Shown: piece by piece, positions 2,831 to 41,180 of the stretch | How the letters are laid out: the number at the start of each line of letters is the position of its first letter | Position numbering within the stretch: position 1 is the stretch's first letter | Virus record (IMG/VR): IMGVR_UViG_3300045988_148061 | DNA length: 46,151 bases | Strand: one strand, 5' to 3' | Origin: a virus | The notes under the pieces: generated by a model | Seen by the model: the letters and a program-made list of their open reading frames with translations, nothing else | Database searches by the model: none | Told to the model about the DNA's origin: nothing | Translations under genes and position numbers: made by a program

Positions 2831-3432
2831 TTACACCTCCTCTAAGGAGTTTTTCTTCTGCTCTATTTCCATTTCTTGTTTTATAAAAGCTAAAAGTATC
2901 TCTTTTTCGCCTTTATCCATAGAATTTAATAGATTATAGCTTTCTTTTGGACTAATGATATTTTTCTTATGAAATAAATAAAACATCAAGAATGTATTAT
3001 CATCAGTCTTTATTAGTTTTTTACTTCTTCTATTAAATCACCTTTATATCCAGTTAGTTCAGTTATAGTGTCAGCTAATGCACTTATTTCTCCGCTTAAT
3101 AAAAGCTTTTTAATTAACTCTTTTCCATGTGGAACTTTGAATTTTTTATGAAGTTCTTTATTAGAAAAAAATCTTGTTCCATCTTCTGCATTAAAAACAC
3201 CATTAAACACTAATTCTATTTGAAGTTTTTGTAAATCAAATGTAGGCTCTTTAGTAGTTATATCAATACAATTTTCTTGTATCTCGCTATACTTGTCATA
3301 AGTTAAAGCCTTACATAAAACCGTAAATTTTTCTCCAAATATATTGGATAATCTTTTTATTTCAACCTCTTTGCTAGGTCTTTGTATTTGTTCTAAATCT
3401 GCATTTAAAAGTAAATCTATTACATTACTCAT
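2831..3432 (-). CDS. Tail assembly chaperone, long isoform by -1 frameshift (G/GT-type)
   Basis: The -1 frame is open for 62 codons from the slippery heptamer to the TAA at 2831..2833. It has no convincing start or SD of its own and ends 3 nt before the tape measure ATG. Confidence 0.55.
3013..3432 (-). CDS. Tail assembly chaperone, short isoform (XkdN-like)
   Basis: Lies between the tube and tape measure genes. Start trimmed to the ATG at 3432, preceded by AAAGGAG. Ends just after an A_AAA_AAC slippery site. Confidence 0.65.
   Translation of the reverse strand: MSNVIDLLLNADLEQIQRPSKEVEIKRLSNIFGEKFTVLCKALTYDKYSEIQENCIDITTKEPTFDLQKLQIELVFNGVFNAEDGTRFFSNKELHKKFKVPHGKELIKKLLLSGEISALADTITELTGYKGDLIEEVKN
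3016..3022 (-). promoter_or_regulatory. -1 ribosomal frameshift heptamer A_AAA_AAC
   Basis: Plus strand gtttttt. In the zero frame it reads GTA AAA AAC TAA. Confidence 0.6.
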
Positions 3433-3450
3433 AGTCAATATTCTCCTTTG

Positions 3451-3484
3451 CATATAAAAATAAAGACTAGGAGCAATATCCTAG
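3451..3484 (-). terminator. Hairpin plus T-tract after the tail tube gene
   Basis: Minus strand CTAGGA-tattgc-TCCTAG followed by TCTTTATTTTTAT. Confidence 0.5.
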
Positions 3485-3499
3485 CCTTACTAAAATGAA

Positions 3500-10756: not shown

Positions 10757-12121
10757 TTATACATTTACATCACCTAATTCAGAATAATTGTCATCATAAA
10801 GCTTATTAGCTTCATTTTCTTTTTTCTCTATTTCAGCTTGAACATCTGAAACTCTAGGCGACATTGCAATTACAGTTTCTTCTGATAATATTCCAGTAAG
10901 ATTTTGCATTATTTGTGATAACTCTAACTCATTATTAGGAGTATTTCTAGTAAAGACTGGCTCAATAGCTAAATAAGAATAATCACTATTATTTTTCATT
11001 TTAGTATAAGCACATAATAACTCTATTCTTCTCATTAAACCTTTTTTAAATTTACTTTCCTTAACTCCTACTAAATTTTCAAGTCCCATAAGTTTAAATT
11101 TCATCGCGATACCACTAGCGTTATTACTGAAATTTTCATCAGTCATATTAGGTACAAAGCTAAATCTATGTATATCTTCATTTAACCTATTTTTATAATT
11201 CTCTAAAGCAGTGTCTTGTATATCTTTTATAAGATATTTTGCATCACTATCTGAATTTAAAAACTGTATTAAATTTATGTCATTTAGGTCTTTAGTTTGT
11301 TCATCGTCTATTAACTCACCATTAACTATTAACATACAATTTGTAAATAATTCAAAATCGTTAGCAGTATCTGATTGACTTTGGTCGTAAGCATCTATCA
11401 AGCTTATTACTTTTTCAAAATCTCCATAAAGTTCATCGTTGTTTATATATACATTTACTGGTATATCATCAAAATAACAATCTTCTTCATCTGATAAAAT
11501 TACATTGTTATCTTCAATAGTTCCTCTTATAATTTTACCATTAGCAACTATTTGCCCTTTGTCATTTTGAGTAGGTTTAGTGTATATTTCTAATCTAGTA
11601 ATAGTTTCATCTTCATCATTAACTCTAATTATTTCATCATAATATCTAATAGCTAATATTATATTTTCTTCTAAAGTGTTATCATAACAAACTATTAACT
11701 GTGAAGGGTCTATCGCTTTAAACCTAGGCTTAGCAAATTTATCTATGTACATTATTTCATAAGCATAACCATATATAGAAGCCATCTTTGCTAAAGTTGT
11801 ATTGTTGTCAGCTTCATCATTATACTTAAATATATCAGTTATTTCTTCTAAAAGCTTTTTGTCTTCTGTAGTATAAGCAATAGGTTTACCTAGTAAATAG
11901 CCAACCGCAGTATCAGTTATATACTGTGCATAAGGGTGAGATAGCTTGTTCTGTGGTTTATTTTTATTTTTATATACTCTGTTGTTTATCTTGTCATTTT
12001 TATTATTGTAATATTTTAGAAGCTTTTCTAATCTTGATTTTTCTTCTGAATGTTTATCTATCAAATCAAGTATTAAATCATTAGTTAAAGTATAATCTTT
12101 ATCTATTTTTATTTTCCTCAT
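10757..12121 (-). CDS. Portal protein (SPP1 gp6-like)
   Basis: 454 aa directly after terL. The LKYYNNK...NKLSHPYAQYITDTAVGYLLGKPI region resembles SPP1-family portals. Start trimmed to the ATG at 12121 after TAGGAGGTG. Confidence 0.8.
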   Translation of the reverse strand: MRKIKIDKDYTLTNDLILDLIDKHSEEKSRLEKLLKYYNNKNDKINNRVYKNKNKPQNKLSHPYAQYITDTAVGYLLGKPIAYTTEDKKLLEEITDIFKYNDEADNNTTLAKMASIYGYAYEIMYIDKFAKPRFKAIDPSQLIVCYDNTLEENIILAIRYYDEIIRVNDEDETITRLEIYTKPTQNDKGQIVANGKIIRGTIEDNNVILSDEEDCYFDDIPVNVYINNDELYGDFEKVISLIDAYDQSQSDTANDFELFTNCMLIVNGELIDDEQTKDLNDINLIQFLNSDSDAKYLIKDIQDTALENYKNRLNEDIHRFSFVPNMTDENFSNNASGIAMKFKLMGLENLVGVKESKFKKGLMRRIELLCAYTKMKNNSDYSYLAIEPVFTRNTPNNELELSQIMQNLTGILSEETVIAMSPRVSDVQAEIEKKENEANKLYDDNYSELGDVNV

Positions 12122-12131
12122 AATACACCTC

Positions 12132-13406
12132 CTATACGTTATATTTGTTTCTATCAAACATCTTGCCTCTTATCATATCGCTTTCAAGTGCATATCTTAT
12201 AGCATCTATAGTGTGATTGTTTTTATCTTCTAATCGAGGCTTAATGTTTCCATCTTTATCTGTTTGATAATCTATATTTTCAAATTCCTTGCAAGTATTT
12301 GGAGTTCTTTTAGGGTCTATTATTATAGCTTCTAAATCATCAAGCCATTTTTCTCCAAACTCAACACTTCCTGGACCTTTTTTAGCACATATCATTTTTA
12401 CTCCATAAGTAAGCAGTTCATCCTTAGATTTAGGCTCGGATGCGTCACATACAGTTAATTGATAATGATAATTTCTAGATTTTATAATTTGTGACAATCT
12501 TCTGTTAGAAGCTTTGACTTCGTAAAATTCGTCTAGTACGTAAATTCTTCTTCTAGTCTTATCATAATGAAGCCTAACAAATGCAACTGGGTCTGTAGCA
12601 TACCCCCAGTCAACACCTTGCCTTATATTGTCAAAGGAAGCTATTTCTTCATCAGTTATAGTCCTAAATTCTAAGTTAGAAAAAGGTACTATACCACTTC
12701 CAATAGGCTCACCTAAATATTCATGTCTATACTTAAATTCATTTCTCTTTTTAACTTCATTGGCTTCTTCTTTAAATGCTTTTGAAATATGTCTGTTTTC
12801 TAAATAAGTAGAATGATGAACATAAGTATTATCTGCTATAAATTGAGTATCGTATTTTTTATTAACCCAACTTTGTTTCCTTTTAGGTGGATTGTAAGAG
12901 TAAAATATTTTATATTCAAGTCCTTCTCCAAGCTCTGCTCTAAGTATAGAATTTACTATCGTTGACACTTCTTCTTCTGTTTTAAATTCAGCTAACTCTT
13001 CTATCCATAAAGTAGTTAAGGGGAACTTAGATATTTTTATAGATTTTATTTTGCTCGGATCGTCTGCCCCTCTAAATATAATCTTGTTTCCTCTTGGCTT
13101 ATATACTATCTGTAAAGGCGACTTTTTACATTCAAATAAATGTCCTAAATCTAGCATCTCAATAGCTTCTTTTAATTGCTCATATACTGACTCAGACAAT
13201 GTATTTCCAACTTTTCGTACACAAAGTATAGTTATAGGCTTTTTAATTATCTCTAATATCAGTGTAAAAGCTATGTGAGTAGATTTAGCACTACCTCTTC
13301 CACCTTTTAGCACGTAATACAAATAACTATCTTTTTTCACTTCACTATAAAACTTCTTAAAATTATCGTTGAATACTTCTGATAGTCTTTTACTCAAAGT
13401 TATCAC
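12132..13406 (-). CDS. terL: Terminase large subunit (PBSX family)
   Basis: Walker A LKGGRGSAKST near the N terminus and a C-terminal nuclease region. The start is uncertain: GTG at 13406 or TTG at 13397. Confidence 0.85.
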   Translation of the reverse strand: MITLSKRLSEVFNDNFKKFYSEVKKDSYLYYVLKGGRGSAKSTHIAFTLILEIIKKPITILCVRKVGNTLSESVYEQLKEAIEMLDLGHLFECKKSPLQIVYKPRGNKIIFRGADDPSKIKSIKISKFPLTTLWIEELAEFKTEEEVSTIVNSILRAELGEGLEYKIFYSYNPPKRKQSWVNKKYDTQFIADNTYVHHSTYLENRHISKAFKEEANEVKKRNEFKYRHEYLGEPIGSGIVPFSNLEFRTITDEEIASFDNIRQGVDWGYATDPVAFVRLHYDKTRRRIYVLDEFYEVKASNRRLSQIIKSRNYHYQLTVCDASEPKSKDELLTYGVKMICAKKGPGSVEFGEKWLDDLEAIIIDPKRTPNTCKEFENIDYQTDKDGNIKPRLEDKNNHTIDAIRYALESDMIRGKMFDRNKYNV

Positions 13407-13824
13407 CTATATCATCAATTATTGTTATAGGCTCTGTTATTTTTAGCTCTGTTTTATCTGTAAATAATTTATGATATTTACCCATTAACTCTAATGCTTT
13501 AAGTTGGTCTTTTTCAGATATTCTTTTTTCAGCTTTAACAACTTCTCCTAGTTGAGTAACCGTTACAATTTCTTCAAAACTTTCCCCTCTAGCCTTTTCA
13601 GATAATCTTATTAAAGCTTCATTCATTTGCATTATTCTCACTTGGTCTAATGCCTTCAATCTATCTTCTACATAACTTTTAATATGAGGTTTTGTCAAGT
13701 TTTCATATCCTATTTCTCTTGCACAATTTTCACTGTAACCGGCTTTTATTGCACTTTGTGTGGCATTAAGGCTCATAATATAATAGTCTGCAAAAGCCTT
13801 TTGCCTTTCGGTTAATTTACTCAC
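13390..13824 (-). CDS. terS: Terminase small subunit
   Basis: LTERQKAFADYYIMSLNATQSAIKAGYS matches the HTH start of small terminases. GTG start at 13824 after AAAGGAGGGG. Confidence 0.75.
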   Translation of the reverse strand: MSKLTERQKAFADYYIMSLNATQSAIKAGYSENCAREIGYENLTKPHIKSYVEDRLKALDQVRIMQMNEALIRLSEKARGESFEEIVTVTQLGEVVKAEKRISEKDQLKALELMGKYHKLFTDKTELKITEPITIIDDIGDNFE

Positions 13825-13863
13825 CTTAACCCCTCCTTTTAAATAAAATAAAAAAGACACCTA

Positions 13864-21301: not shown

Positions 21302-21498
21302 CTTATCCCCCTATTTTTCCATCTATTCTTCATTTCTAATTCTTTTATATATTTGTCAAATTCTTCTTTGCTCATACTTATATTTTTAACTTCAGCTTCT
21401 TTATATGCTTTTTCATATGTGTATTTAAGTTCGTTGTTTATATTGTGTCCCCATTGACTTTTTTCTAATCTTCCCATGTTCCCTGTACTTCCTCCCAT
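21298..21498 (-). CDS. Hypothetical protein (66 aa; alternative start 21477)
   Basis: Overlaps the primase-helicase 3' end. GGAGGAAG lies upstream of the internal ATG. Confidence 0.45.
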   Translation of the reverse strand: MGGSTGNMGRLEKSQWGHNINNELKYTYEKAYKEAEVKNISMSKEEFDKYIKELEMKNRWKNRGIR

Positions 21499-23252
21499 AA
21501 ATCTAAGTATCTTTTATTTAATTCTTTTTCTGTTTCAGCACTATAAAACCTTTTACGCTCTATACTAAACATTAACTTTTTACCTACATTTACCCCTGTA
21601 TGTCTATTCTTCAGTATTTTAAGTATTGCATCATATTCAACTACATCATCTTTCGCTCTTGATATTGTAGTTACATAATCAGCTAGGTTAGTTATATTAG
21701 CACTTCCTGCAACATCATCTTTTTCAATTTCATCATTCATAGACTTTCTAGGATGTGCAACTAAATGAACTAAAGCATTATATTTTTTAGCAAAGTTTTT
21801 TAGTTTTTTAACTACATCAGTTTCAGCTTCGTACTTATCCTTCAAGCTACTTTCAATAGTCATAAGATTATCTATAACAAACACCCTTACGCCATATCTT
21901 TTAGCTAGTATAGTCATTTTTTCAATTATAGCTTCAATTCTATAATCATCACTATCATATAAGAAAAATCTATCTTTCATATCATTAACTATTTTTTCTT
22001 TTGCTTGAATAGTAACTTTTTTATATTTATGACCGTCTTTAGCAGTATACTCTGCGAATTCTTCTTCGTTGGCTAAAGTTTGAAGCAACCAGTATTTAAC
22101 ATTCCCACCTATTAACTCACCACTAAATAGAAATGTCTTATAACCTTGAGCAATAGCTTCTGCAATATATATTTGATTTAATATAGTTGATTTACCACTA
22201 CCGTTTCTACCACTTAAAACATTAAGACTCCCAAATACCATTCCAACAAGCTTATCATCAATATATTCTATACCAGTTTTTAATGTTTCAGCTTCATGCA
22301 CGTCAAAATCTTCTATCATATCCAAAGTTGCAACACCTTCTAAAACTGGCGTTGAAGCTTTTTCTATTTGTTTTAATACTGCTAACTTTCCATACTTGTG
22401 CAATAACTCATTTATATCATTAGCTACCTCACATCTAACTATTTTTACACTACTGTTAGGCAATCTATTAAATACCTCTCTAGCACCTTTTATTCCTGCT
22501 TCATCATTATCAAACCAAATTATTATCTCTTCAAACTGTTCTATAAAAGTCCAGTTGCTTGTTATCCACTCATTAGTGCCATTAACTCCACTCGGTATAG
22601 ATACTGCATTTTTAAATCCACTTTCTATTGCTGATAAACAATCAAATTCACCTTCTGTTATTAATAAAGGATCTGATATATTTATTTTATCCATGTTAAA
22701 TAAAGTATTTACATTGGTCCCCTTCTCAAACCACATTTTAGGACCTTCACTCTTTTTAGTTTTTCTATATTTATTTGCTAAATGCTCGCCCAACTCATTT
22801 CTATACTCAAATACTACACAATTATTATTTTCTTTTACTCTTACATAATCTATAGTATCTTTTGATATATTTCTTTTTTCACAATAAGTTAATATGTTTT
22901 TATTATAATTTTCGTGCTTCGTAGGAGATTTTTTAGGCTTCCTATCTGATTCATTGATAATTATATCAATATTTAAATTAAAATCGTTTATAATTGATTT
23001 TGTAGCTTCTAGGAATGATTTATTGTAATATTCTTGATAGTGATTAAATATATCGTAAGAAGCAGCACATGAAAAACATTTGAATTTTTTCTTTTTAAAA
23101 TCATAACTCATACTTGGATTACTTTCAGAATGTTTAAAGCATAAACATTTATTATTTTTAAATTTTAATCCTAAATCTAAGGCTATTTTATTTTTAACTT
23201 GCTCTGCATCTATATATTTTTTTATATCATCAACTATGTTTTTTAAATTCAT
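21465..23252 (-). CDS. Bifunctional primase-helicase (CHC2 Zn finger, Toprim and DnaB-like ATPase)
   Basis: CLCFKHSESNPSMSYD...FKCFSC, then ITEGEFDCLS...WFDNDEAG, then Walker A SGRNGSGKST and Walker B VFVIDNL. Confidence 0.85.
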   Translation of the reverse strand: MNLKNIVDDIKKYIDAEQVKNKIALDLGLKFKNNKCLCFKHSESNPSMSYDFKKKKFKCFSCAASYDIFNHYQEYYNKSFLEATKSIINDFNLNIDIIINESDRKPKKSPTKHENYNKNILTYCEKRNISKDTIDYVRVKENNNCVVFEYRNELGEHLANKYRKTKKSEGPKMWFEKGTNVNTLFNMDKINISDPLLITEGEFDCLSAIESGFKNAVSIPSGVNGTNEWITSNWTFIEQFEEIIIWFDNDEAGIKGAREVFNRLPNSSVKIVRCEVANDINELLHKYGKLAVLKQIEKASTPVLEGVATLDMIEDFDVHEAETLKTGIEYIDDKLVGMVFGSLNVLSGRNGSGKSTILNQIYIAEAIAQGYKTFLFSGELIGGNVKYWLLQTLANEEEFAEYTAKDGHKYKKVTIQAKEKIVNDMKDRFFLYDSDDYRIEAIIEKMTILAKRYGVRVFVIDNLMTIESSLKDKYEAETDVVKKLKNFAKKYNALVHLVAHPRKSMNDEIEKDDVAGSANITNLADYVTTISRAKDDVVEYDAILKILKNRHTGVNVGKKLMFSIERKRFYSAETEKELNKRYLDLWEEVQGTWED

Positions 23253-23263
23253 ATATCTTCCCC

Positions 23264-24007
23264 CTACCCAATATCGCAACTTTGAGTATATTTTCTTCTA
23301 TTGTTGCATATACTAGGATTAACTTTAATATTTTTATTTTTATCAGAACCTATTGCAGTAGGTTCTTTTTTATTTGCTTCATTTAAATAATTTTCAAATT
23401 TAGTCCCAAATAAAGTTGCTGGCCTTAAATACTTTTCAAAATCTGTATTAAGCCAATCTTTGCTTTTACTATCAATAACCTTTTTAAAATCTTCTACTGT
23501 ATATCCTTCTCTTACTCTAGCATTTATAAAACTTTGAGTATTTTTAGTAGTTGGTCTGTAATTAGTAGAAGCTTTTCTATTAAGATAATCTATAACTAAA
23601 CTATATATATTATTATTATCTTTCTCTTTTTTCTTTGTAGTATTGTTAGATTGTTGTTGTTTAGTTGTTAGATTACTGTTATCTGACTCCTCAACTCGTT
23701 GCAATTGCTCACTTTTATTTGTTGCATTATTGTTGAATAATTGTTGCTTAATTGTTAGCTTCAATGTACTTTCTTTCCCTTTACTCCCACTTGTAAGAAA
23801 CTTAATATACCCTTCTTTCTCAAATTTCTTTAATATAGTCCTAACTTTTTGAGTAGTTAGATTTAATCTCTTATCAGAATTTACAACTAACTGATTAATT
23901 GTATATCCTGCTATATCTGTATCATAATTTGAGTATCTACACAACAATCTCCAAATATCTATCTCTTCAAGTGTCATTTCATCTAGTGCTATAAAATATT
24001 TTTTCAC
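23264..24007 (-). CDS. Replication organiser/initiator (winged-helix N domain plus Phg_2220_C-like C domain)
   Basis: C-terminal VIDYLNRKASTNYRPTTKNTQSFINARVREGYTVEDFKKVIDSKSKDWLNTDFEKYLRPATLFGTKFENY matches the conserved phage C-terminal domain. GTG start after AAGGGGG. Confidence 0.7.
   Translation of the reverse strand: MKKYFIALDEMTLEEIDIWRLLCRYSNYDTDIAGYTINQLVVNSDKRLNLTTQKVRTILKKFEKEGYIKFLTSGSKGKESTLKLTIKQQLFNNNATNKSEQLQRVEESDNSNLTTKQQQSNNTTKKKEKDNNNIYSLVIDYLNRKASTNYRPTTKNTQSFINARVREGYTVEDFKKVIDSKSKDWLNTDFEKYLRPATLFGTKFENYLNEANKKEPTAIGSDKNKNIKVNPSICNNRRKYTQSCDIG
23643..23760 (+). repeat. 11-bp-phased TTGTT(A/G)N(A/C)T repeats inside the organiser gene
   Basis: TTGTTAGAT at 23643 and 23665. 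TTGTTGAAT, TTGTTGCTT and TTGTTAGCT at 23730, 23741 and 23752. All offsets are multiples of 11 except between the two groups (65 bp). Confidence 0.75.
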
Positions 24008-24687: not shown

Positions 24688-25476
24688 TTAATCGTAATAT
24701 TTCCATTCAAGTCCTCCAGTTCTTTTTCTTCTTCCTTTACAACATGCAGTTATATTTGGTATACCTACATTATATTTCCTACTTGCATCAGATAAAGAAT
24801 CAAATATTTCCCCAGTAGTTACACAAATAATCTTTCTAGCCCAAGGATTATCTCCTCCAACTAATTTCCCTCTTCTTGATACACTTATTTTTTCTTTAAC
24901 TTCATCGGTTTTACTTTTCCCATACATTGGAGATTTTTCACCTTTTAAAGCTTTACTTATCTTATCTTTCGTTTCATTTTTCATAGTGCGTCCAATAGCA
25001 GATTTTCTCATTTTTTTAATGCTTTCTTCTGAATGTTTCTTCCCATAAAAATGATTATTTTCCCCACTTTTCATTTCACTAAGTTTAGCCCTTGTTTCTT
25101 CACTAACAATTCTTCCCCTACTATACTCAGCCAATAATCTTTTATGTTCCTCAGAAAGCTTCTTTCCAAATCTAGGATGTAGTTCTCCACTTCCCGTTCC
25201 TTTCCCTCCTTCGCACAAATTATAATAATCCTTGCTTCTAACTGCATTATTTATAAAGATATATTCTTTTTCTTTTTCATATGCTTCATCTTCGCTATTA
25301 CATACGAATACTATTTTCTTTTCAAAATTATTTATTCCATACTTATTTATAGCTTTCATTAAAGCCTTACCACTTCCCATGTATCTATCTTTACTTATTT
25401 CACAATGACAACTTCTTTTCCCTATATATTTTCTTCCATTAACCAAATTAGTTATTTCATACACATAATGATTCAT
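24688..25476 (-). CDS. Free-standing GIY-YIG homing endonuclease (I-TevI/Seg-like)
   Basis: YVYEITNLVNGRKYIGKRS (GIY...YIG), three NUMOD3-like repeats (HPRFGKKLSEEHK, NHFYGKKHSEESI, SPMYGKSKTDEVK) and a C-terminal HTH-like module. Confidence 0.85.
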   Translation of the reverse strand: MNHYVYEITNLVNGRKYIGKRSCHCEISKDRYMGSGKALMKAINKYGINNFEKKIVFVCNSEDEAYEKEKEYIFINNAVRSKDYYNLCEGGKGTGSGELHPRFGKKLSEEHKRLLAEYSRGRIVSEETRAKLSEMKSGENNHFYGKKHSEESIKKMRKSAIGRTMKNETKDKISKALKGEKSPMYGKSKTDEVKEKISVSRRGKLVGGDNPWARKIICVTTGEIFDSLSDASRKYNVGIPNITACCKGRRKRTGGLEWKYYD

Positions 25477-28469: not shown

Positions 28470-28862
28470 CTATGCAAATAGTTGATATATTGCATATATT
28501 AAAGCAATTATTAATATATAAGTTAAGCATCCCCAACTTGCTTCACCTTTTTCAACTTGTTTTTTAAGCACTTGATAAGTTTTCCAGTCCTTTTCCTCTA
28601 GTTGTATTGTAAGAGTATCTGACCTTTTATCTTGCTTATTAAACTTTGGCTTATACTTATTAATGAAATAGACTTCCATAACTTGTGCATCAGATTTAGT
28701 TTTCCATTTTATATATTCTATTTTTGCCACACTAGAATAACATTCTTTTGGTAAATGACCTTTTGTAAAATGCTGATTCATTCTCTCGCTCATTTTTTGC
28801 CCAGTATAGCCTATATAAATAGTGTTGCCATACTTATCTTTAAATCTGTAAGTATAAGCCAT
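28470..28862 (-). CDS. GIY-YIG nuclease domain protein with a C-terminal transmembrane anchor
   Basis: YTYRFKDKYGNTIYIGYTG...RMNQH...EVYFINKYKPKFN (GIY-YIG core), followed by the hydrophobic tail WGCLTYILIIALIYAIYQLFA. Confidence 0.6.
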   Translation of the reverse strand: MAYTYRFKDKYGNTIYIGYTGQKMSERMNQHFTKGHLPKECYSSVAKIEYIKWKTKSDAQVMEVYFINKYKPKFNKQDKRSDTLTIQLEEKDWKTYQVLKKQVEKGEASWGCLTYILIIALIYAIYQLFA

Positions 28863-32772: not shown

Positions 32773-33696
32773 TTAAAAATTAGCTTTGAAAATTCCCTTA
32801 GCATTAGGGTTTCTACCACTCCAATTTGTTCCATTTTTTAAATCTAATTTATATGCAATATCTTCGTTTGACATATCTTCTACACTTTTCAATTCTCCAT
32901 TTACATCAACTTTACTATCTGCCATATATATTGATCCTTTTCTTTTGCTTGTATCAATACCATTATTGTTTCCATACTTATAAGCCATTCTTAAAGCTTT
33001 TATACCATGAGAATTGTTAATCTCGCATATACTTAAAGCTTCTTTTAATTTATCTATATCAGTAAATTCTTCTTCACAATCTTTTAAATCTTGCTTTCTA
33101 ATATTTACACAACTTTTATTTATAATTTTCACTACTTCACTTTCTACTTTTTTACATTGATTTTTTTCATCAAATGAAGTATTATTTATATCAGAATTGC
33201 ATATACTTTTATTAGGTTTGATTTCTTCGGCTTCTACTTGTGGCAAAGTAGGGGCTTTTTTATTTTTCATATCTTCATCATCTTCCGTTATGCTTGGAAG
33301 AAGTGAATATAATTTTTCAGTAGGGGCAAAATAAGATTTAGTGCCTTCTGCATCTTTTTTAGTGTATCTTTTAAATATTCCTATAAATTTAGATTTCATC
33401 TTTTTCTTTCTGCTACTTTCTTTCATTGAGTTAAGCCTTTCTTCCCAATCGCTTGGCTTTTCTCCTAAATCATAAATTAACATATCGCTTATAGCTTGTT
33501 TTTTAACTCCTAATATTTCTAAATCTGTAGCTACTTTTTCATATTTTACCCAATAATAAAATTCACCATTTACAAGCACCTTTTCCATCTTGTTACTATT
33601 TATAAAGTTTAATAAATATCTTATAACTAAGCTTTCATCATGGCTTATTTTTTCCTCTTTCAATCTGCTGCTTAAAAAACCGTGTATATATTTCAT
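32773..33696 (-). CDS. Initiator-like protein (winged-helix N domain), candidate Rep for the adjacent iterons
   Basis: The N-terminal about 90 aa (ISHDESLVIRYLLNF...YYWVKYEKVATDLEILGVKKQAISDMLI) resemble RepA_N/organiser wHTH logic. Second gene downstream of the iteron region. Confidence 0.35.
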   Translation of the reverse strand: MKYIHGFLSSRLKEEKISHDESLVIRYLLNFINSNKMEKVLVNGEFYYWVKYEKVATDLEILGVKKQAISDMLIYDLGEKPSDWEERLNSMKESSRKKKMKSKFIGIFKRYTKKDAEGTKSYFAPTEKLYSLLPSITEDDEDMKNKKAPTLPQVEAEEIKPNKSICNSDINNTSFDEKNQCKKVESEVVKIINKSCVNIRKQDLKDCEEEFTDIDKLKEALSICEINNSHGIKALRMAYKYGNNNGIDTSKRKGSIYMADSKVDVNGELKSVEDMSNEDIAYKLDLKNGTNWSGRNPNAKGIFKANF

Positions 33697-33713: not shown

Positions 33714-34049
33714 TTACTTTACTATTCCTTTTATAATAAGCTTTTCTATATTTGGCTTATTAAGCTTAAATAAAACAACAGTTCCAAATTCTCTACCCTT
33801 TTTTAAAATTTCCCTTGTTATAAACTTCTTCATACCCTCTTTGTCTAACATCCTTCTAAGTTTAACAGAATTAGCTTCGTAACTTTTGTTATTAAATATG
33901 ATAGGTAAATCATTTATTATTTTTGCATATGGCAATTCAAATTCTTCTCCTAAATTTTCTCTTTCTGATACTAAAGATAAATAGCTTATAAGAGTTATAT
34001 CTTTTACATCAATATTATTACTTATAGCCATTTCAAAATTAACACTCAT
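33714..34049 (-). CDS. Small winged-helix-like protein, first gene downstream of the iteron/DnaA-box region
   Basis: 111 aa, SD AAGGAGG. ITLISYLSLVSERE...YAKIINDLPII...SVKLRRMLDKEGMKKFI. Confidence 0.4.
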   Translation of the reverse strand: MSVNFEMAISNNIDVKDITLISYLSLVSERENLGEEFELPYAKIINDLPIIFNNKSYEANSVKLRRMLDKEGMKKFITREILKKGREFGTVVLFKLNKPNIEKLIIKGIVK

Positions 34050-34079
34050 TTTTAACCTCCTTATCTGTTTTCTAATATT

Positions 34080-34108
34080 ATTATAACATACTTAATAGGA
34101 TATGTATA
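34080..34108 (-). promoter_or_regulatory. Promoter TATACA-N17-(TGT)TATAAT with an extended -10
   Basis: Read on the minus strand, between the AT-rich/iteron region and 33714..34049. Confidence 0.5.
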
Positions 34109-34191
34109 TGTTTTTTATTAAAAGCTAAATTTTTTTTATTATATATATATTATCTATAATAATTTCCCTATAATAACTTATCTATCTTTGT

Positions 34192-34298
34192 TCAATTCCA
34201 TCGAATTAACCCCGTCAATTCCACGGAATGTACCCCGTCAATTCCACGGAATGTGTGGGTATTATATTTTTACTTATACCGTCAATTCCACGGAATGT
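34192..34298 (+). repeat. Iterons: three exact 20-bp CCGTCAATTCCACGGAATGT plus one degenerate copy
   Basis: Exact copies at 34212..34231, 34235..34254 and 34279..34298, with a degenerate TCAATTCCATCGAAT at 34192. Spacings are 23, 23 and 44 bp. Each contains ATTCC-AC-GGAAT dyad symmetry. Confidence 0.9.
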
Positions 34299-34336
34299 GT
34301 GCAGTATTTTCAACGGTTTAAGCTATAAACAATATT

Positions 34337-34363
34337 TGTGGATTATGTGGATATTGTGGATAA
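34337..34363 (-). promoter_or_regulatory. Three abutting DnaA-box-like 9-mers
   Basis: TGTGGATTA TGTGGATAT TGTGGATAA. The reverse complements are TAATCCACA, ATATCCACA and TTATCCACA against the consensus TTATCCACA (1, 1 and 0 mismatches). Confidence 0.7.
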
Positions 34364-34441
34364 ACTTATATATAATTAAATTAGTATAATTTTACAAGCA
34401 CCTAGTAGAGATAAACAACTCATACCACAAAGGAGGAAGAA

Positions 34442-34573
34442 ATGAAAATAAAATTACTTGAAAATGATAAAATAATCGAAGTGCCTAAGTACTGGAAATG
34501 GCATTTAGTAGAAGGTAAAAAAGTTATAATTGACCAAAACAAAGAAATAATTGCTTTAGTAGTAGAGGAATAA
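34442..34573 (+). CDS. Hypothetical protein (43 aa), plus strand
   Basis: Strong SD AAAGGAGGAAG 3 nt before the ATG. Product MKIKLLENDKIIEVPKYWKWHLVEGKKVIIDQNKEIIALVVEE. Confidence 0.55.
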   Translation: MKIKLLENDKIIEVPKYWKWHLVEGKKVIIDQNKEIIALVVEE

Positions 34574-34638
34574 TGTATAAATATATTCAGATATGCTTAT
34601 AATACCTTTTAAATTAGATTTTAAAGGTGGTCGGTTAT

Positions 34639-34812
34639 ATGTTTAATATATTTAATCAAGATAAAGAAGAAAAAGGCTCATACTGGGAAAGAAATCATCA
34701 AGATAATTTTTATAGTGAGAGTAGCTATAATAATAATTTTCAATATTGTAGATGTTGTGATAGGTATCAAAGATTTGAATATGATAGATGTTGTGTATGT
34801 CATTCAAATTAA
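34639..34812 (+). CDS. Cys-rich small protein (57 aa), plus strand
   Basis: ATG after AAAGGTGG. The C terminus is CRCCDRYQRFEYDRCCVCH. Confidence 0.5.
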   Translation: MFNIFNQDKEEKGSYWERNHQDNFYSESSYNNNFQYCRCCDRYQRFEYDRCCVCHSN

Positions 34813-34911
34813 AATAGCCTATACAGATTAAGTATAAGCCATTAAAACGTTAGAATAATTTGGATATAAATTTGTGGAATTTCAAAAATCTAGACAATAA
34901 TTATAAACTTA

Positions 34912-34941
34912 TTGTACTAACTTAATTATATTTTTCATAAT
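34912..34941 (+). promoter_or_regulatory. Candidate plus-strand promoter TTGTAC-N18-CATAAT with no ORF before the terminators
   Basis: Read directly. Plus-strand terminators follow at 35005 and 35071. Confidence 0.3.
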
Positions 34942-35004
34942 AAAATTTGTCAATATTTTACCAAATAAAAAGGATTTTAATTACTTTTATAGAATTATAT
35001 ATAT

Positions 35005-35046
35005 GTACTAAAATTTAGCTATGTTTTAGTACCTCTTTTCTTTTAT
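35005..35046 (+). terminator. Rho-independent terminator (plus strand)
   Basis: GTACTAAAA-N10-TTTTAGTAC followed by CTCTTTTCTTTTATT. Confidence 0.6.
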
Positions 35047-35070
35047 TATTAATTATATCGTTAATAAAGA

Positions 35071-35100
35071 AGATTGCTTTTAAGCAGTCTTTTTTTATTT
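35071..35100 (+). terminator. Rho-independent terminator (plus strand)
   Basis: AGATTGC-ttttaa-GCAGTCT followed by TTTTTTTATTT. Confidence 0.65.
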
Positions 35101-35110
35101 GTCTAATTTA

Positions 35111-35150
35111 AACATAAAAAAGAAGCTAATCCCCATAGCTTCCCCTTTTT
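35111..35150. terminator. Bidirectional terminator
   Basis: GAAGCTA-atcccca-TAGCTTC flanked by an A-run upstream and CCCTTTTT downstream. Confidence 0.6.
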
Positions 35151-35270
35151 ACTGAACTTATATGATTGTTTGTTGATATTGAAATCTTTAGCCGATTAAC
35201 TGTTGAATTTATACTCTACAACTCGAGTGTTGTAAATTAAAGTTGGATATACTTATATTGTAGCAAGTAA

Positions 35271-35302
35271 AAGAAGCTATCGCAACAATACAATAGCTTC
35301 TT
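35271..35302 (-). terminator. Hairpin downstream of the endolysin gene
   Basis: 10-bp stem AAGAAGCTAT/ATAGCTTCTT with a 12-nt loop and short T-tracts on both strands. Confidence 0.45.
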
Positions 35303-39600: not shown

Positions 39601-41180
39601 GAACTATCAGTAGATATATTACTTCCTTCTACACACTCATAAACTTGTTTAGCCTTTTCTATATCTCTATCAAGTCTAGCTTTTAAAGAAGTTTCTCCAT
39701 CACGAGCATCTATAACTTCTGCATCTTGTTGTTGTGAAGATGTAAGTGCGTTAAATCTAGTTTCTACTTCATTTATTTTATTTGATACAGTATTAGTCAT
39801 ATCAGATTTAGCAACTTCTATTTCAGATATTTTAGTGTCAACTTTAGTATTTATACTAGCTACAAAATTATCTTTAGCATTATCTATTTCAGATATTTTA
39901 TTATCGACTTTAGTATTTATACTAGATATAAAATTATCTTTAGTAGTATCTAATTCAACTATCTTTTCATCAACTTCACTTACTTTATTTTCAAATATAT
40001 TTTGTCTAGAAGTTTCATTTTTTTCTCTAGCTTTTTCATTAGCTTTTCTAGTATTTTCATTAGATATTCTTTCAACTTCATTTGATACTCTTCTATCTTC
40101 TTGTGATTTTCTATTTAACTCATTAGACTTTCTTTCTTCTTCTTTAACTTTTGCAGTATTAGTATAGTTTTCAAAGTTATTAGCATTAGCTTCTGCATCA
40201 GCTATAAAAGAGTTATATCTACTTTGTCTTTGAGTTTCTGCTTCTACTCTGTGAGTTTCATTATTTTGTCTAGTTTCTTCATTAGCTTTTCTTGTATTTT
40301 CATTACTAACTCTAGTATTTTCTGCTAATACTCTAGCTTGTTCTGTAGTTCTTCTTTTAGCTTCTTCATTAACTCTATTAGTTTCAGCTTGAACTCTTAA
40401 AACTTCTGCTTCTTTGTGTGCATTAGCTTCTAATCTTCTACGTTCTTCATCCTCTGTCATAAAGTTGTAATTATCTTTTCTAAGTTGTTCGGCTTTCACT
40501 CTATTAGTTTCTTGCTCTATTCTATTAGCTTCATTTTCAAGCCTTACATTTTCACTAGATATTCTAGCTTCTTCATTGATTTTTCTTATATTCTCATTAC
40601 TTTCTCTTGTTGCATCGTATTTAGTTCTGTCTGCTTCCTCGTGTTGTCTAACAAGTTCAGCTTCTACCCTTTTAGATTCTTCTATTTTTCTATTTTCTTC
40701 TGATAATATTCTTTCGGCTTCATTTATCACTCTTTGTTCTTCTGATATTTCTATAGTAGATAATCTTGCTAAAGCATCTGTAAAAAGAGGAAATCTTTCA
40801 TCACTTACAACATCATCATTAAGCCTAGATATTATTTTATCTTCACTTACTGAATAGTTTATAGTGTCTGTAGTTACTATTTCCCCTTCTAAGACTATCA
40901 TAGCTTTAGCTTGATAATTTCCTACTAAATCACACATAGAAGGCTTTAAATCGGCATATATTTGCCCTTCTTTAACTTCTATGAATTGAGCATCAACTGC
41001 ATTATTAGGTTTAATTGCAACTAAAGTAATTATTGATTTATCTAAATCTTTTACTACTTCGTTATTTTTAGTTACTTCAATATAAAAATCATTAACATTT
41101 TTATCAAACTGATTAAATGCCATTTTTTTATTATAAAGTTTTTTATTTAAGTCTAGCTTTATTTTATACTCTTTATTCAT
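36684..41180 (-). CDS. Large tail fibre / receptor-binding protein (1498 aa) with a BppU_N-like N terminus
   Basis: N-terminal MNKEYKIKLDLNKK...DFYIEV...AQFIEVKEG is BppU-like. About 250 aa of NExxR heptad-like repeats precede a large C-terminal globular region. Confidence 0.75.
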   Translation of the reverse strand: MNKEYKIKLDLNKKLYNKKMAFNQFDKNVNDFYIEVTKNNEVVKDLDKSIITLVAIKPNNAVDAQFIEVKEGQIYADLKPSMCDLVGNYQAKAMIVLEGEIVTTDTINYSVSEDKIISRLNDDVVSDERFPLFTDALARLSTIEISEEQRVINEAERILSEENRKIEESKRVEAELVRQHEEADRTKYDATRESNENIRKINEEARISSENVRLENEANRIEQETNRVKAEQLRKDNYNFMTEDEERRRLEANAHKEAEVLRVQAETNRVNEEAKRRTTEQARVLAENTRVSNENTRKANEETRQNNETHRVEAETQRQSRYNSFIADAEANANNFENYTNTAKVKEEERKSNELNRKSQEDRRVSNEVERISNENTRKANEKAREKNETSRQNIFENKVSEVDEKIVELDTTKDNFISSINTKVDNKISEIDNAKDNFVASINTKVDTKISEIEVAKSDMTNTVSNKINEVETRFNALTSSQQQDAEVIDARDGETSLKARLDRDIEKAKQVYECVEGSNISTDSSVGYLKDIEILGNTIQSASNLADIKSVGDKVEGQELYEIPVLSRGKNLFNIDNISSNIISKSNDTYEIHTQTPIDLYNKGIFKAVKNVQYTVSYKAKLGTATNFRANFVYTDGSVQQFSYCNSTTEFIQITKTSDKNKQLDYVRFNWTNAGTIYIKDIQIEEGTVATPYEPYVEDKITILSPVQLEKVGDVRDRIIEKGGVWGVEKNVDTAILNGNEVWSLSVQTPYNRFLTKHIYIKAVDGIGVLSSKYKSSSFIDLWNNLDKESIASHNVDDGFLSIRANYSNVEEFKNSLKSNNILIKYIATQPTFIPLPHDQQVKLRTFANKTNISFLTEIEGTIKAQVPKSLGATVNTHTEQISNLNKELDRVKKLEESTVSTITTESDFTTVEATSGGYFEDVKLEGKTLINLFNFKAVGIVNEVNIYGYAQNYELTKGKEVTLVNNTDKVVIYDISKDSIWVRSYILNANTCIKATLEESEYIRCCYGAGARGWDANSESDKEKIKKTCIVLEGDHTQNLPNYFEGLKSVGQSGTTSEDGADEIVVSSVNPYGNLFDGELEVGSLNASGDTDWTSYVKTGLIRVKPSSEVICKIGKYKGENATSTDIRMAEYDMNKNFIKFSGGTYKATVSDKTHYVKFAKKLETSDDSRVDINAVSDVVVVYGNKLHDIPHQSDKKRLLYYNEETQTWEKPILRQWDSIEKHANGKYYYHQRSGEVVLNGSEEWASWLLLENTIGFLLTNTSFKNTTDKYAITAISDKLTSRSINDFKSDVEGIGLWDDRNRLVTRVNNSKLSTQDVQGFKQWLQTNNVTVVYQLAEEKVYECTNIDLITYVNETNYVIESGVLSPKTTLKVHSNISNVVSLLQKKVSLLESNMTKYMITQNRLMLASRYNADTVSFKVDVASFSDAFEYDNDLYELILNNVLVGKDNYNREYIENLIRFYWMDFVISDEMYSTLFEIIEEQHNPKIEEETPLI
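39821..39952. repeat. Two tandem 66-nt copies inside the fibre gene
   Basis: tttcagatatttta...actttagtatttatactag...aaaattatctttag occurs twice. It encodes (D/A)KDNF(I/V)(S/A)SINTKVD(N/T)KISEI twice. Confidence 0.85.

Follow-up and report, generated by a model that had tools for sequence, protein, structure and literature searches.

The intergenic region at 34.05-34.37 kb of the window (the whole stretch of viral DNA analyzed, 46,151 nucleotides) raises the question of whether it is a replication origin and, if so, whether this origin belongs to the replication module of a phage or is a separate plasmid replicon. The original prediction favored the latter: a Rep- and DnaA-dependent replicon of the P1 oriR type, dedicated to a plasmid prophage and distinct from the lytic module, that maintains the element as a low-copy plasmid. 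The window is a complete, circularly assembled genome of 46,074 bp from a gut Clostridium phage. Its repeats are real and most likely mark the replication origin, which is of a kind that many related phages have. The region is probably the phage's own theta origin, similar to those of lambda, TP901-1 and SPP1, located upstream of the initiator gene. The features on which the argument is based are as follows.

21465..23279, minus strand: 604-aa primase-helicase (zinc finger, Toprim, DnaB_C)
23264..24007, minus strand: 247-aa replisome organiser (weak HTH_24, and Phg_2220_C/TIGR02220)
32773..33696, minus strand: 307-aa candidate origin-binding initiator
33714..34049, minus strand: 111-aa protein, first gene of the early operon
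34080..34108, minus strand: P_left, early promoter, TATACA-17-TGnTATAAT
34109..34188, no strand: AT-rich tract (86-87% A+T), candidate DNA-unwinding element
34184..34192, minus strand: junction motif AACAAAGAT, directly after the last iteron on the gene side
34189..34208, plus strand: iteron 1, degenerate, in register, 13/20 identical to the consensus
34212..34231, plus strand: iteron 2, exact
34235..34254, plus strand: iteron 3, exact, 23 bp from iteron 2
34279..34298, plus strand: iteron 4, exact, 44 bp from iteron 3
34337..34363, minus strand: three abutting DnaA boxes, TAATCCACA, ATATCCACA and TTATCCACA
34348..34376, plus strand: P_right, divergent promoter
34442..34573, plus strand: 43-aa ORF that has a strong ribosome-binding site and opens the small divergent cassette
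34627..34812, plus strand: 61-aa ORF (called as 57-aa) with a CxxC-CxxC motif, last gene of the divergent cassette

When the whole window is searched for CCGTCAATTCCACGGAATGT, exact copies are detected at 34212, 34235 and 34279, and no other match is detected at three or fewer mismatches; the number expected by chance is zero (100 shuffles). These three copies and the degenerate copy form an array of dyad-containing units of 20-23 bp, spaced at 23/23/44 bp, as had been predicted. The core of iteron 1 is intact in the relatives L015, L019 and L021. Copies 2 and 3, which had been described as identical over 23 bp, form a perfect tandem of ACCCCGTCAATTCCACGGAATGT (34209-34231 and 34232-34254), and the ATTCC-NN-GGAAT dyad, which had likewise been noted, is present in all four copies and nowhere else in the window. 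The array is the sole non-coding repeat array of the genome, and no second origin-like array is found elsewhere in it. Neither iteron or dyad matches at other promoters, including P_left, nor an extra copy-control array are found in the window. A single exact iteron copy in L003 is dismissed, because its context is unrelated, and the repeats at 66-bp spacing that precede the L023 homolog belong to a CRISPR array and are not iterons.

The tract that adjoins the iterons on the gene side was first described as consisting of A and T only. It is not pure A+T, but it is AT-rich, and no duplex anywhere else in the genome is as unstable: calculated with windows of 40, 60, 80 and 100 bp, the stability minimum of the whole genome lies here and spans 34073-34174. 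CTATAATAA occurs twice within the tract, at 34154-34162 and 34168-34176. The stability minimum abuts the iterons and also contains P_left, so that its low stability could simply reflect the presence of this promoter. P_left, which is detected by a consensus scan with the predicted extended -10 (TATACA-17-TATAAT preceded by the TG extension), directs transcription into the genes for the 111-aa and 307-aa proteins, and is retained in relatives, in which its -35 is TTTACA.

The 307-aa protein consists, according to its AF2 model, of an N-terminal winged-helix domain (residues 1-135, pLDDT >95) and a helical C-terminal domain (residues ~187-290). Both genes downstream of P_left had been called winged-helix-like; this description stands for the 307-aa protein, and is far less secure for the 111-aa protein, the model of which has a pLDDT of 59. 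The 307-aa protein has no match in Pfam, PHROG or NCBIfam, and thus none in Pfam to Rep_3, PF06970 (RepA_N) or Phage_rep_org_N, the last of which is the family of G38P-type organisers. When its model is compared with the PDB by Foldseek, nothing is found below an E value of 0.09, and the top matches (DnaD, 4pql and PadR/MarR) are no more than suggestive; 4pql_A, which is a RepA_N-type N-terminal domain, is matched without significance (E 0.22). The N-domain profile matches only a PadR-like protein among PDB sequences (E 0.42). Comparison of the model with BFVD yields three fold matches with E values below 1e-3 (1e-6 to 7e-4), one of which is to a protein named as containing Phg_2220_C. Among 62 distant homologs of the N-domain, 12 carry Phg_2220_C and 2 carry DnaB_2. 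The C-terminal half is fused elsewhere to RepA_N (P0121, P0130 and P0147) and to HTH_36 plus DnaD_N (P0127 and P0143). These domain relationships place the N-domain in the family of phage replisome organisers, and make the 307-aa protein a candidate replication initiator, both halves of which are common to replication initiators.

Close relatives have exchanged the iterons, the small gene and the initiator N-domain jointly, and have retained the C-domain and the DnaA boxes. In clade B (L018, L043 and L045), the N-domain is 44% identical and the iterons, which are spaced at 67/22/23/22 bp, are unrelated. In clade C (L034), the iteron is identical at 20 of 23 positions, the recognition-helix region is near-identical and the small gene is unrelated. 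In clade D (L065), the iterons have diverged and are 16/23 identical to those of the window. Cassette E (L069) combines a RepA_N N-domain, detected in its protein P0121 at 33 bits, with new iterons, TGTAAAATTTYTTTAC, and a C-domain that is 93% identical. The array is located upstream of the initiator gene in the window as well as in cassettes B, C, D and E. The iteron type therefore co-varies with the initiator N-domain across five cassette types (4-5 independent comparisons); that this co-variation rests on 4-5 cassette types counts against the origin reading. The prediction of an origin-like module next to an initiator-like gene is supported by these joint swaps, by the sharing of both halves of the 307-aa protein with initiators, and by the recurrence of the layout in other genomes, as described below.

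The 111-aa protein, in contrast to the initiator N-domain, does not co-vary with the iteron type, and it is probably not the iteron binder because of this. Cassette C keeps an A-like iteron despite an unrelated small gene; the small-gene position is occupied by other small proteins in cassettes C, B and E, and no similarity is detectable between the 111-aa protein and those of cassettes C and B. The 111-aa protein is limited to this phage group (15 clusters) and has no match in Pfam, PHROG or NCBIfam. The fold matches of its model are all winged-helix domains, none of them significant, and are set aside as evidence, because the model is poor. The 111-aa protein may nevertheless be a winged-helix protein that acts as a regulator or co-factor.

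Homologs of the N-domain are encoded by L063 (C. difficile pCd18_3), L064 (C. botulinum p3), L067, L023, L024 and L049, and are confirmed by Pfam to contain Phg_2220_C in the case of L063 and L067. All of these genes contain, in the region encoding the linker, four palindromic iterons at 22/23/23 bp. The iterons of L063, L064, L067, L023 and L024 are directly followed by AACAAAGAT and then by 15-mer repeats; in L049, an AT-rich run takes the place of these repeats. The window has the same layout of iterons, AACAAAGAT and AT-rich DNA, with its AT-rich tract at the position of the AAAGATTATTCTATT 15-mer repeats of the homologous origins, but upstream of the gene rather than inside it. AACAAAGAT abuts the last iteron in L018, L043 and L045 as well as in all of these homologs, regardless of whether the DNA is coding or non-coding. 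No promoter is expected inside these genes, and the iteron/AACAAAGAT module is therefore not primarily an operator array.

The three abutting DnaA boxes (34337-34345, 34346-34354 and 34355-34363) differ from TTATCCACA at 1, 1 and 0 positions, as predicted. Counted over the whole window, DnaA boxes are no more frequent than chance predicts (17 observed, 16.3 expected), but the third box is the sole perfect one, and among 300 Markov simulations none produces a triple on the same strand and 6 produce a pair. Cassettes A, B and E, to which the comparison extends, each have two or three boxes that abut one another, alike in place and orientation; the homologous contigs of clades C and D end within the iteron array. 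The boxes overlap P_right, the -35 of which (TGGATA) falls within box 2 and the spacer of which contains box 3, a geometry that is also seen in L018 and L069. Firing of the origin in a DnaA-dependent manner is plausible, but DnaA may have no part in initiation, because the gene-embedded homologous origins lack such boxes.

The genes for the organiser and helicase are ~10 kb from the gene for the 307-aa protein, whereas such genes are adjacent in classical modules, which counts against the origin reading. The primase-helicase gene follows the gene for the 247-aa organiser, not that for the 307-aa protein. The linker of the 247-aa organiser gene contains two copies of AATCTAACAA, 22 bp apart, before an ACAAAGA-like stretch, but no four-copy array that would mark a second origin within this gene. 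The lack of an iteron array in the organiser gene fits a single origin served by both proteins. We infer that the 247-aa organiser connects the helicase with the complex formed at the origin, and that the 604-aa primase-helicase is the replicative helicase loaded at the origin.

If the region is the phage's own theta origin, initiation may proceed as follows. Early after infection, the 111-aa and 307-aa proteins would be expressed from P_left. Dimers of the 307-aa protein would bind, through the N-terminal winged-helix domain, to the four 23-bp-phased iterons at the TTC-N4-GAA/ATTCC-NN-GGAAT dyad, and the resultant nucleoprotein complex would melt the adjoining AACAAAGAT/AT-rich tract (34109-34192). 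The C-terminal domain of the initiator, which is common to RepA_N- and DnaD_N-type initiators, would then recruit either the Phg_2220_C organiser and primase-helicase or host loaders. The DnaA boxes on the far side may bind host DnaA as an auxiliary origin factor, may render P_right responsive to DnaA, or may do both. Every step of this scheme is extrapolated from what is observed directly, namely the sequence elements, their conservation, the co-variation of the iterons with the N-domain and the domain relationships.

The plasmid-prophage replicon of the original prediction is not supported and is unlikely. Iterons, an AT-rich tract and tandem DnaA boxes do adjoin an initiator gene, and the C-domain of the 307-aa protein is common to RepA_N-type plasmid initiators. 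The 247-aa organiser, encoded by the helicase gene's neighbor, is a second initiator-like protein, so that two modes of replication are conceivable. The element is never joined to host DNA: its relatives are known only as metagenome or MAG contigs, which are 40-49 kb long and differently permuted, and the genome assembles as a circle. Distant homologs of the N-domain are, moreover, encoded by Clostridial phage-plasmids. In the genuine Clostridial phage-plasmids, however, the N-domain protein belongs to the phage replication module, and ParA or plasmid-rep genes are present separately nearby, as in pCd18_3, which has a ParA gene. The assignment of the N-domain to the family of phage organisers, together with an organiser gene that has no array, speaks against a second replicon for plasmid maintenance that is separate from the lytic module.

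The claim of a low-copy plasmid prophage fares no better. No gene for an integrase, a partition protein (ParA/ParB, ParM or TubZ), a toxin-antitoxin or other stability function, or a CI-type repressor is found among the ORFs scanned, which include most of those of the early region down to ~60 aa; many small ORFs of the genome remain without annotation. The regulator-like proteins that are found are short, four XRE/Cro-like and one Arc-like, all encoded on the lytic strand. Extra copy-control iterons and an iteron-like operator at P_left, which such a replicon might have, are lacking. The early operon begins with the origin cassette, so that expression of Rep would entail expression of early lytic genes. 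The genome encodes three GIY-YIG/NUMOD homing endonucleases and a nucleotide-modification domain, which suggest a virulent phage. Close relatives are present in no isolate genome, in no PLSDB plasmid and not in INPHARED, which may reflect an uncultured host, and the DNA of 32.7-35.5 kb matches none of 50,697 phage records. Rfam and tRNA scans of the window yield nothing, and the GC-skew profile gives no information, as almost every gene lies on the same strand. The lineage might instead persist unintegrated, as a plasmid prophage or in a carrier state, coupled to host DnaA and without canonical partition or lysogeny genes. In that case the DnaA boxes, which are kept through at least three cassette exchanges, would tie origin firing and P_right to the replication-initiation status of the host; we give this possibility a small chance.

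It is also rather improbable that the region serves transcriptional control only, with the repeats as operators of a winged-helix regulator (the 111-aa or 307-aa protein) at P_left and P_right, a DnaA-responsive P_right, and the origin elsewhere. Two divergent promoters flank the array, every repeat shows the kind of dyad symmetry that operators have, and the -35 and spacer of P_right fall on the DnaA boxes both here and in L018 and L069. The small first gene of clade B, in addition, encodes a regulator-type winged-helix protein with HTH_36/MarR-like matches. Nevertheless, the repeats overlap neither promoter: the -35 of P_left is 81 bp away from one end of the array and that of P_right 50 bp away from the other, and none of the genome's other promoters has an iteron copy. 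In at least six lineages, the homologous iteron/AACAAAGAT/15-mer module is located inside genes, where control of a promoter is not expected. The two halves of the 307-aa protein are both associated with replication initiators, and the genome has no alternative origin-like array. That the repeats form a packaging site, whether pac or cos, or a centromere for partition is very improbable: direct-repeat arrays can be binding sites for terminase or ParR/ParB, and the genome assembles as circular or permuted, but the terminase genes (12132-13860) are ~20 kb from the array, no partition ATPase is found and the co-varying partner of the repeats is an initiator-like winged-helix protein, so that these readings, like that of an attP site, are rejected on gene context.

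The phage's own theta origin, as proposed here, has counterparts in several known systems. ORF13 of TP901-1 and Rep2009 of Tuc2009 bind direct repeats inside their own genes, and these repeats are the origin (PMC8965321). As in these phages, the candidate initiator has an N-terminal winged helix, their organisers having a C-domain of the DnaD-like or Phg_2220_C type (HTH_36 plus DnaB_2 in a domain scan of ORF13 in the TP901-1 genome record), and their gene-embedded arrangement is that of the distant homologs of the 307-aa protein. The window differs from them in that its origin is extragenic and upstream, with the helicase gene 10 kb away and tandem DnaA boxes attached, and in that its N-domain is in no curated family and its C-domain is neither DnaB_2 nor Phg_2220_C. 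The iterons of lambda bind O dimers beside a 40-bp A+T-rich region (PMC5043065). The window resembles ori-lambda in its four dyad iterons, which are probably bound by dimers, and in the adjoining A+T-rich region, which opens in lambda; the candidate initiator resembles lambda O in that its specificity would reside in the N-terminal domain and in its expression from an early promoter (PMC5043065). Unlike the window, lambda has its origin inside the O gene and without DnaA boxes; there is no sequence homology between the two, and the host here is a Gram-positive Clostridium. The oriL of the Bacillus phage SPP1, a virulent Firmicute phage, is located in gene 38 and likewise consists of direct repeats along with an AT-rich unwinding element, and its origin-binding protein brings a DnaB-type helicase for theta replication (PMC6316719). 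SPP1 differs in that it has two origins (oriL and oriR), uses gp39 as a separate loader and lacks DnaA boxes, and the 307-aa protein has no Phage_rep_org_N match.

The window also shares with pSC101, pPS10, RK2, R6K, F and P1 oriR its helix-phased iterons, the presence of DnaA boxes and of an AT-rich region, and the position of the initiator gene next to them (PMC5043065, PMC4980987). Unlike these replicons, the window encodes no Rep_3-type initiator, its iterons are palindromic, which suggests binding by a dimer, and it lacks an incA-like control array, a partition system and, at the rep promoter, an inverted half-iteron. Its elements are arranged as DnaA boxes, iterons and AT tract, those of the plasmids as DnaA box, AT tract and iterons. 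The window is related to RepA_N initiators of the pSK41 type through its C-terminal half, which is fused to RepA_N in relatives, and L069 uses this combination at the same locus; its own N-domain, however, has no PF06970 match. RepA_N origins are located within the rep gene.

If the assignment is correct, four palindromic iterons phased at 22-23 bp, followed by AACAAAGAT and AT-rich 13-15-mer repeats, constitute a recognition rule for a widespread type of phage origin that is not found described in the literature searched, and that is tied to an N-terminal winged-helix domain for which Pfam, NCBIfam and PHROG have no model. Candidate origins located by this rule lie in Clostridial phages and phage-plasmids (C. 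difficile, C. botulinum) and also in a phage group that is abundant in the human gut. The relatives would provide a natural swap series for initiator specificity, in which the iterons and the N-domain change while the C-domain and the DnaA boxes remain constant. For a phage that is apparently virulent, a DnaA-box tandem that stays constant and overlaps a divergent promoter poses the question of whether the phage senses or uses host DnaA. The origin cassettes could also supply replicon parts for Clostridium genetics. In the divergent cassette on the far side of the DnaA boxes, the 43-aa ORF has a gene call in every close relative, and the 61-aa CxxC-CxxC ORF is conserved in clade B.

All sequence features listed in the original prediction are found where it placed them, around 34.2 kb. 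Exact 20-bp iteron copies start at 34212, 34235 and 34279 (three copies; chance expectation, 0), with a degenerate copy in register at 34189, and copies 2 and 3 repeat perfectly in tandem over 23 bp. The ATTCC-NN-GGAAT dyad is confined to the iteron copies within the window, and the iteron array is the only non-coding repeat array of the genome. The tract predicted to be AT-only is AT-rich but not pure (86-87% A+T). The least stable duplex genome-wide is located at 34073-34174, as calculated with windows of 40, 60, 80 and 100 bp. The array is flanked by two divergent promoters, one of which (P_left) reads into the genes for the 111-aa protein and the 307-aa protein, the candidate initiator, and the other (P_right) into the plus-strand ORFs.

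34108..34080, minus strand: P_left, with an extended -10
34348..34376, plus strand: P_right, with its -35 (TGGATA) within DnaA box 2 and box 3 in the spacer

Three DnaA boxes abut at 34337-34363, and one of them is the sole perfect box in the window. The total number of DnaA boxes in the window is at chance level; a same-strand triple is found in none of 300 Markov simulations. The repeats are therefore real, and the segment is quite probably a replication origin, as predicted. That it is the phage's own iteron-type origin cassette, with the full mechanism proposed for it, is somewhat less certain, but still favored.

No Pfam, PHROG or NCBIfam model matches the 307-aa or the 111-aa protein. 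With the 307-aa protein as query, an exhaustive HMMER search matches 229 cluster representatives. Many homologs align over residues 1-70 only, and 12 of 62 such proteins contain Phg_2220_C and two contain DnaB_2, a DnaD-like domain. Other homologs match the C-terminal half only, and have either RepA_N (P0121, P0130, P0147) or HTH_36 and DnaD_N (P0127, P0143) at the N-terminus. This result indicates that both halves of the 307-aa protein travel with replication-initiator domains. In its AF2 model, residues 1-135 (the N-domain; pLDDT >95) form a winged helix, the wing of which is a long hairpin. Three BFVD fold matches have E values of 1.4e-6 to 7e-4, one of them a Phg_2220_C protein, and weaker ones are named replisome organiser or replication initiator; PDB matches are not significant, with DnaD, 4pql and PadR/MarR at the top. 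The proposed winged-helix assignment is well supported for the 307-aa protein, but weakly for the 111-aa protein, which is modeled poorly and is found in this phage group only. The 247-aa protein is a classical organiser (Phg_2220_C at 100 bits). In lactococcal theta plasmids, Phg_2220_C occurs as a fusion with Rep_3 (PMC4490491).

Six loci encoding N-domain homologs were compared: C. difficile plasmid pCd18_3 (L063), C. botulinum plasmid p3CbBKT12695 (L064), a temperate phage encoding a serine recombinase and a CI/Cro pair, in which DnaB follows the N-domain gene (L067), and L023, L024 and L049. All six share an origin-like layout within the gene: ~415-515 nt into it are four repeats that contain palindromes and are spaced 22/23/23 bp apart (for example GGTAAAAATACC, CGGTATCAATACCG and GGACAAAAATGTCC). 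The repeats fall in the linker before Phg_2220_C in L063 and L067, for which the domains were mapped. The last repeat is directly followed by AACAAAGAT and then by two copies of AAAGATT(A/C)TTCTATT (one in L067; an AT-rich run instead in L049). On the minus strand of the window, the iterons are followed by AACAAAGAT-AGATAAG and an AT-rich run that contains TTATTATAG twice, upstream of the gene. Retention of the 9-mer at the same junction in coding and non-coding contexts indicates that it is a DNA-level signal, not a coding by-product. The homologous loci share their architecture with TP901-1 and Tuc2009, in which repeats within the organiser gene are the proven origin (PMC8965321), and their design with SPP1 oriL (PMC6316719) and lambda (PMC5043065). 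A domain scan of TP901-1 ORF13 detects HTH_36 and DnaB_2. The cassette of the window is best explained as a relocated version, decorated with DnaA boxes, of an origin type that is widespread and associated with organisers; no description of this type was found in the literature searched.

The 247-aa organiser gene contains no four-copy iteron array, consistent with one origin, at 34.2 kb, that a split initiator/organiser pair would serve. Within this gene (23630-23672, minus strand), two copies of AATCTAACAA are located 22 bp apart, just before ACTACAAAGAAAAAAGAGAAAGATAATAATAATATATATAG, one of the 40-bp windows with the lowest duplex stability genome-wide (23578-23617). They may be what is left of a gene-embedded origin belonging to the same family. 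L023 (IMGVR_UViG_2541047295_000016), a prophage-like contig encoding a distant N-domain homolog, also carries a CRISPR array at 3057-3492, in which GTTTTATATTAACTAAGTGGTATGTAAAT occurs seven times, spaced 66 bp apart, and the spacers vary.

The phage and its relatives carry five variants of the cassette.

Cassette variants (identities relative to the window unless stated)
A (window, L015, L019-22): small gene 111 aa; N-domain, reference; iteron CCGTCAATTCCACGGAATGTACC
B (L018, L043, L045): small gene 88 aa, HTH_36/DnaD_N-like; N-domain 44%; iteron TCAWATGATAAGA, 67/22/23/22 bp
C (L034): small gene 78 aa; N-domain 64%, recognition segment 71%; iteron ACGTCAATTCCGTGGAATGTACC (20/23)
D (L065): small gene 113 aa, 57% identical; N-domain 64%, recognition segment 60%; iteron CCAACCATTCGGCTGAACGTACC, four copies (16/23)
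E (L069): small gene 88 aa, 28% identical to that of B; N-domain RepA_N; iteron TGTAAAATTTYTTTAC

In clade A, the full-length large proteins are 74-100% identical, and the array is nearly unchanged though protein identity falls to 74%. The recognition-helix segment of clade C hardly differs from that of the window (LGIKKQALSDMIIYDL versus LGVKKQAISDMLIYDL), and the 78-aa small protein has no detectable similarity to the 111-aa protein. Clade D has a diverged recognition segment, and its four iterons are identical 23-bp copies in tandem. In clade B, AACAAAGATTATTCTATT repeats come after the iterons; in cassette E, three copies of a 13-mer do. These comparisons indicate that it is the large protein's N-domain that the iteron type tracks, rather than the small protein. 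Cassette E belongs to a very close sister phage, in which the endolysin-side and downstream gene layout is unchanged and the C-terminal half of the large protein is 93% identical, indicating that the swap is confined to the cassette. One recombination joint lies between the DnaA boxes and the iterons, the other between the initiator's two domains, and such swapping is the behavior of origin-initiator specificity modules.

Between its DnaA boxes and iterons, clade B (L018 1163-1200, L043, L045) has a single TGTAAAATTTCTTTAC, the iteron of cassette E (L069 3288-3324). This lone copy hints that a B cassette was inserted into an E-type background. One exact 20-bp iteron is found in another viral contig (L003, IMGVR_UViG_3300044580_000253, 11614-11633) in an unrelated, apparently coding context, with no array or DnaA boxes around it. 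Short metagenome contigs with cassettes C and D (L034, L035, L036, L065, L066) start within or at the iteron array, probably because tandem repeats break short-read assemblies there.

Cassettes A, B and E retain two to three abutting DnaA boxes in unchanged position and orientation, one of which forms the -35 of P_right, 17 bp upstream of TATAAT or TACAAT. No DnaA boxes are found near the gene-embedded origins of the same family. These results place the boxes in the constant flank, where they could assist the origin as an auxiliary element, control a promoter in response to DnaA, or do both. The divergent cassette beside the boxes is variable: clade A relatives add a 59-aa ORF and a DUF7167 ORF (L015 8642-9033), and that of clade B (L043 600-3430) holds as many as eight ORFs, which all lack Pfam matches.

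The window ends overlap exactly by 77 bp, indicating a complete genome of 46,074 bp, circularly assembled or permuted. Its G+C content is ~28%, and only two ORFs, both small (43 and 61 aa), are on the plus strand.

13860-12132, minus strand: small and large terminase, then portal, head and tail genes, running across the window ends
41180-36684, minus strand: tail fibre
36111-35434, minus strand: holin and endolysin, separated from the early region by a 1.4-kb gap
34049 downwards, minus strand: early region, with FtsK-like protein, GIY-YIG/NUMOD homing endonucleases, Rad52, ERCC4 and SSB
24007-23264, minus strand: Phg_2220_C organiser (247 aa), early region, upstream of the primase-helicase
23279-21465, minus strand: primase-helicase, early region

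The original prediction assigned the cassette a plasmid-maintenance role, as the replicon of a plasmid prophage separate from the lytic module. The element is never seen integrated, and many of its ORFs are unannotated, as this proposal would allow. However, no integrase, partition ATPase, toxin-antitoxin or CI-type repressor gene is detected among the ORFs scanned, and in genuine Clostridial phage-plasmids the N-domain protein is encoded in the phage replication module, just downstream of an HTH regulator gene pair, and ParA or a 'plasmid replication protein' is encoded apart from it. Together with the organiser gene lacking the array, these results leave the proposal unsupported, and a plasmid-maintenance role is improbable. 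The lytic strand encodes four short XRE/Cro-like proteins and an Arc-like protein; the genome also encodes an ArpU/RinA-like late activator, three GIY-YIG/NUMOD endonucleases and a DUF1599 nucleotide-modification domain.

Many human-gut metagenomes carry the same phage as 40-49-kb contigs with varying start points, and none of the metagenome matches lies in a longer contig. The sole match among 185,579 species-representative genomes is a 48.9-kb contig in an 'uncultured Clostridium sp.' MAG. The region 32.7-35.5 kb has no nucleotide match among 50,697 deposited phage records.

GIY-YIG/NUMOD genes come and go at various sites among near-identical relatives (window 28470-28862 and 24688-25476; L005/L008 879-1571; L043 4632-5111); L005 has one between holin and endolysin, where the window has none. 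A perfect TTGACA-17-TATAAT promoter (34925-34953, minus strand) is followed ~75 nt on by a terminator-like hairpin (34813-34843). This pair, convergent with or antisense to the 3' end of the 61-aa ORF and conserved in L015, could produce a ~100-nt small RNA or drive read-through transcription towards the origin. A non-coding stretch at 35040-35300, which separates the endolysin gene from the plus-strand cassette, has no Rfam match; it hardly differs in L015 despite diverged neighboring proteins, and contains two terminator-like hairpins on the plus strand (35066-35095 and 35122-35142). The 1498-aa tail-fibre gene contains 21-nt periodic repeats, corresponding to a heptad-like protein repeat, and a 66-nt tandem duplication (39990-40757 and 39807-39938, respectively).
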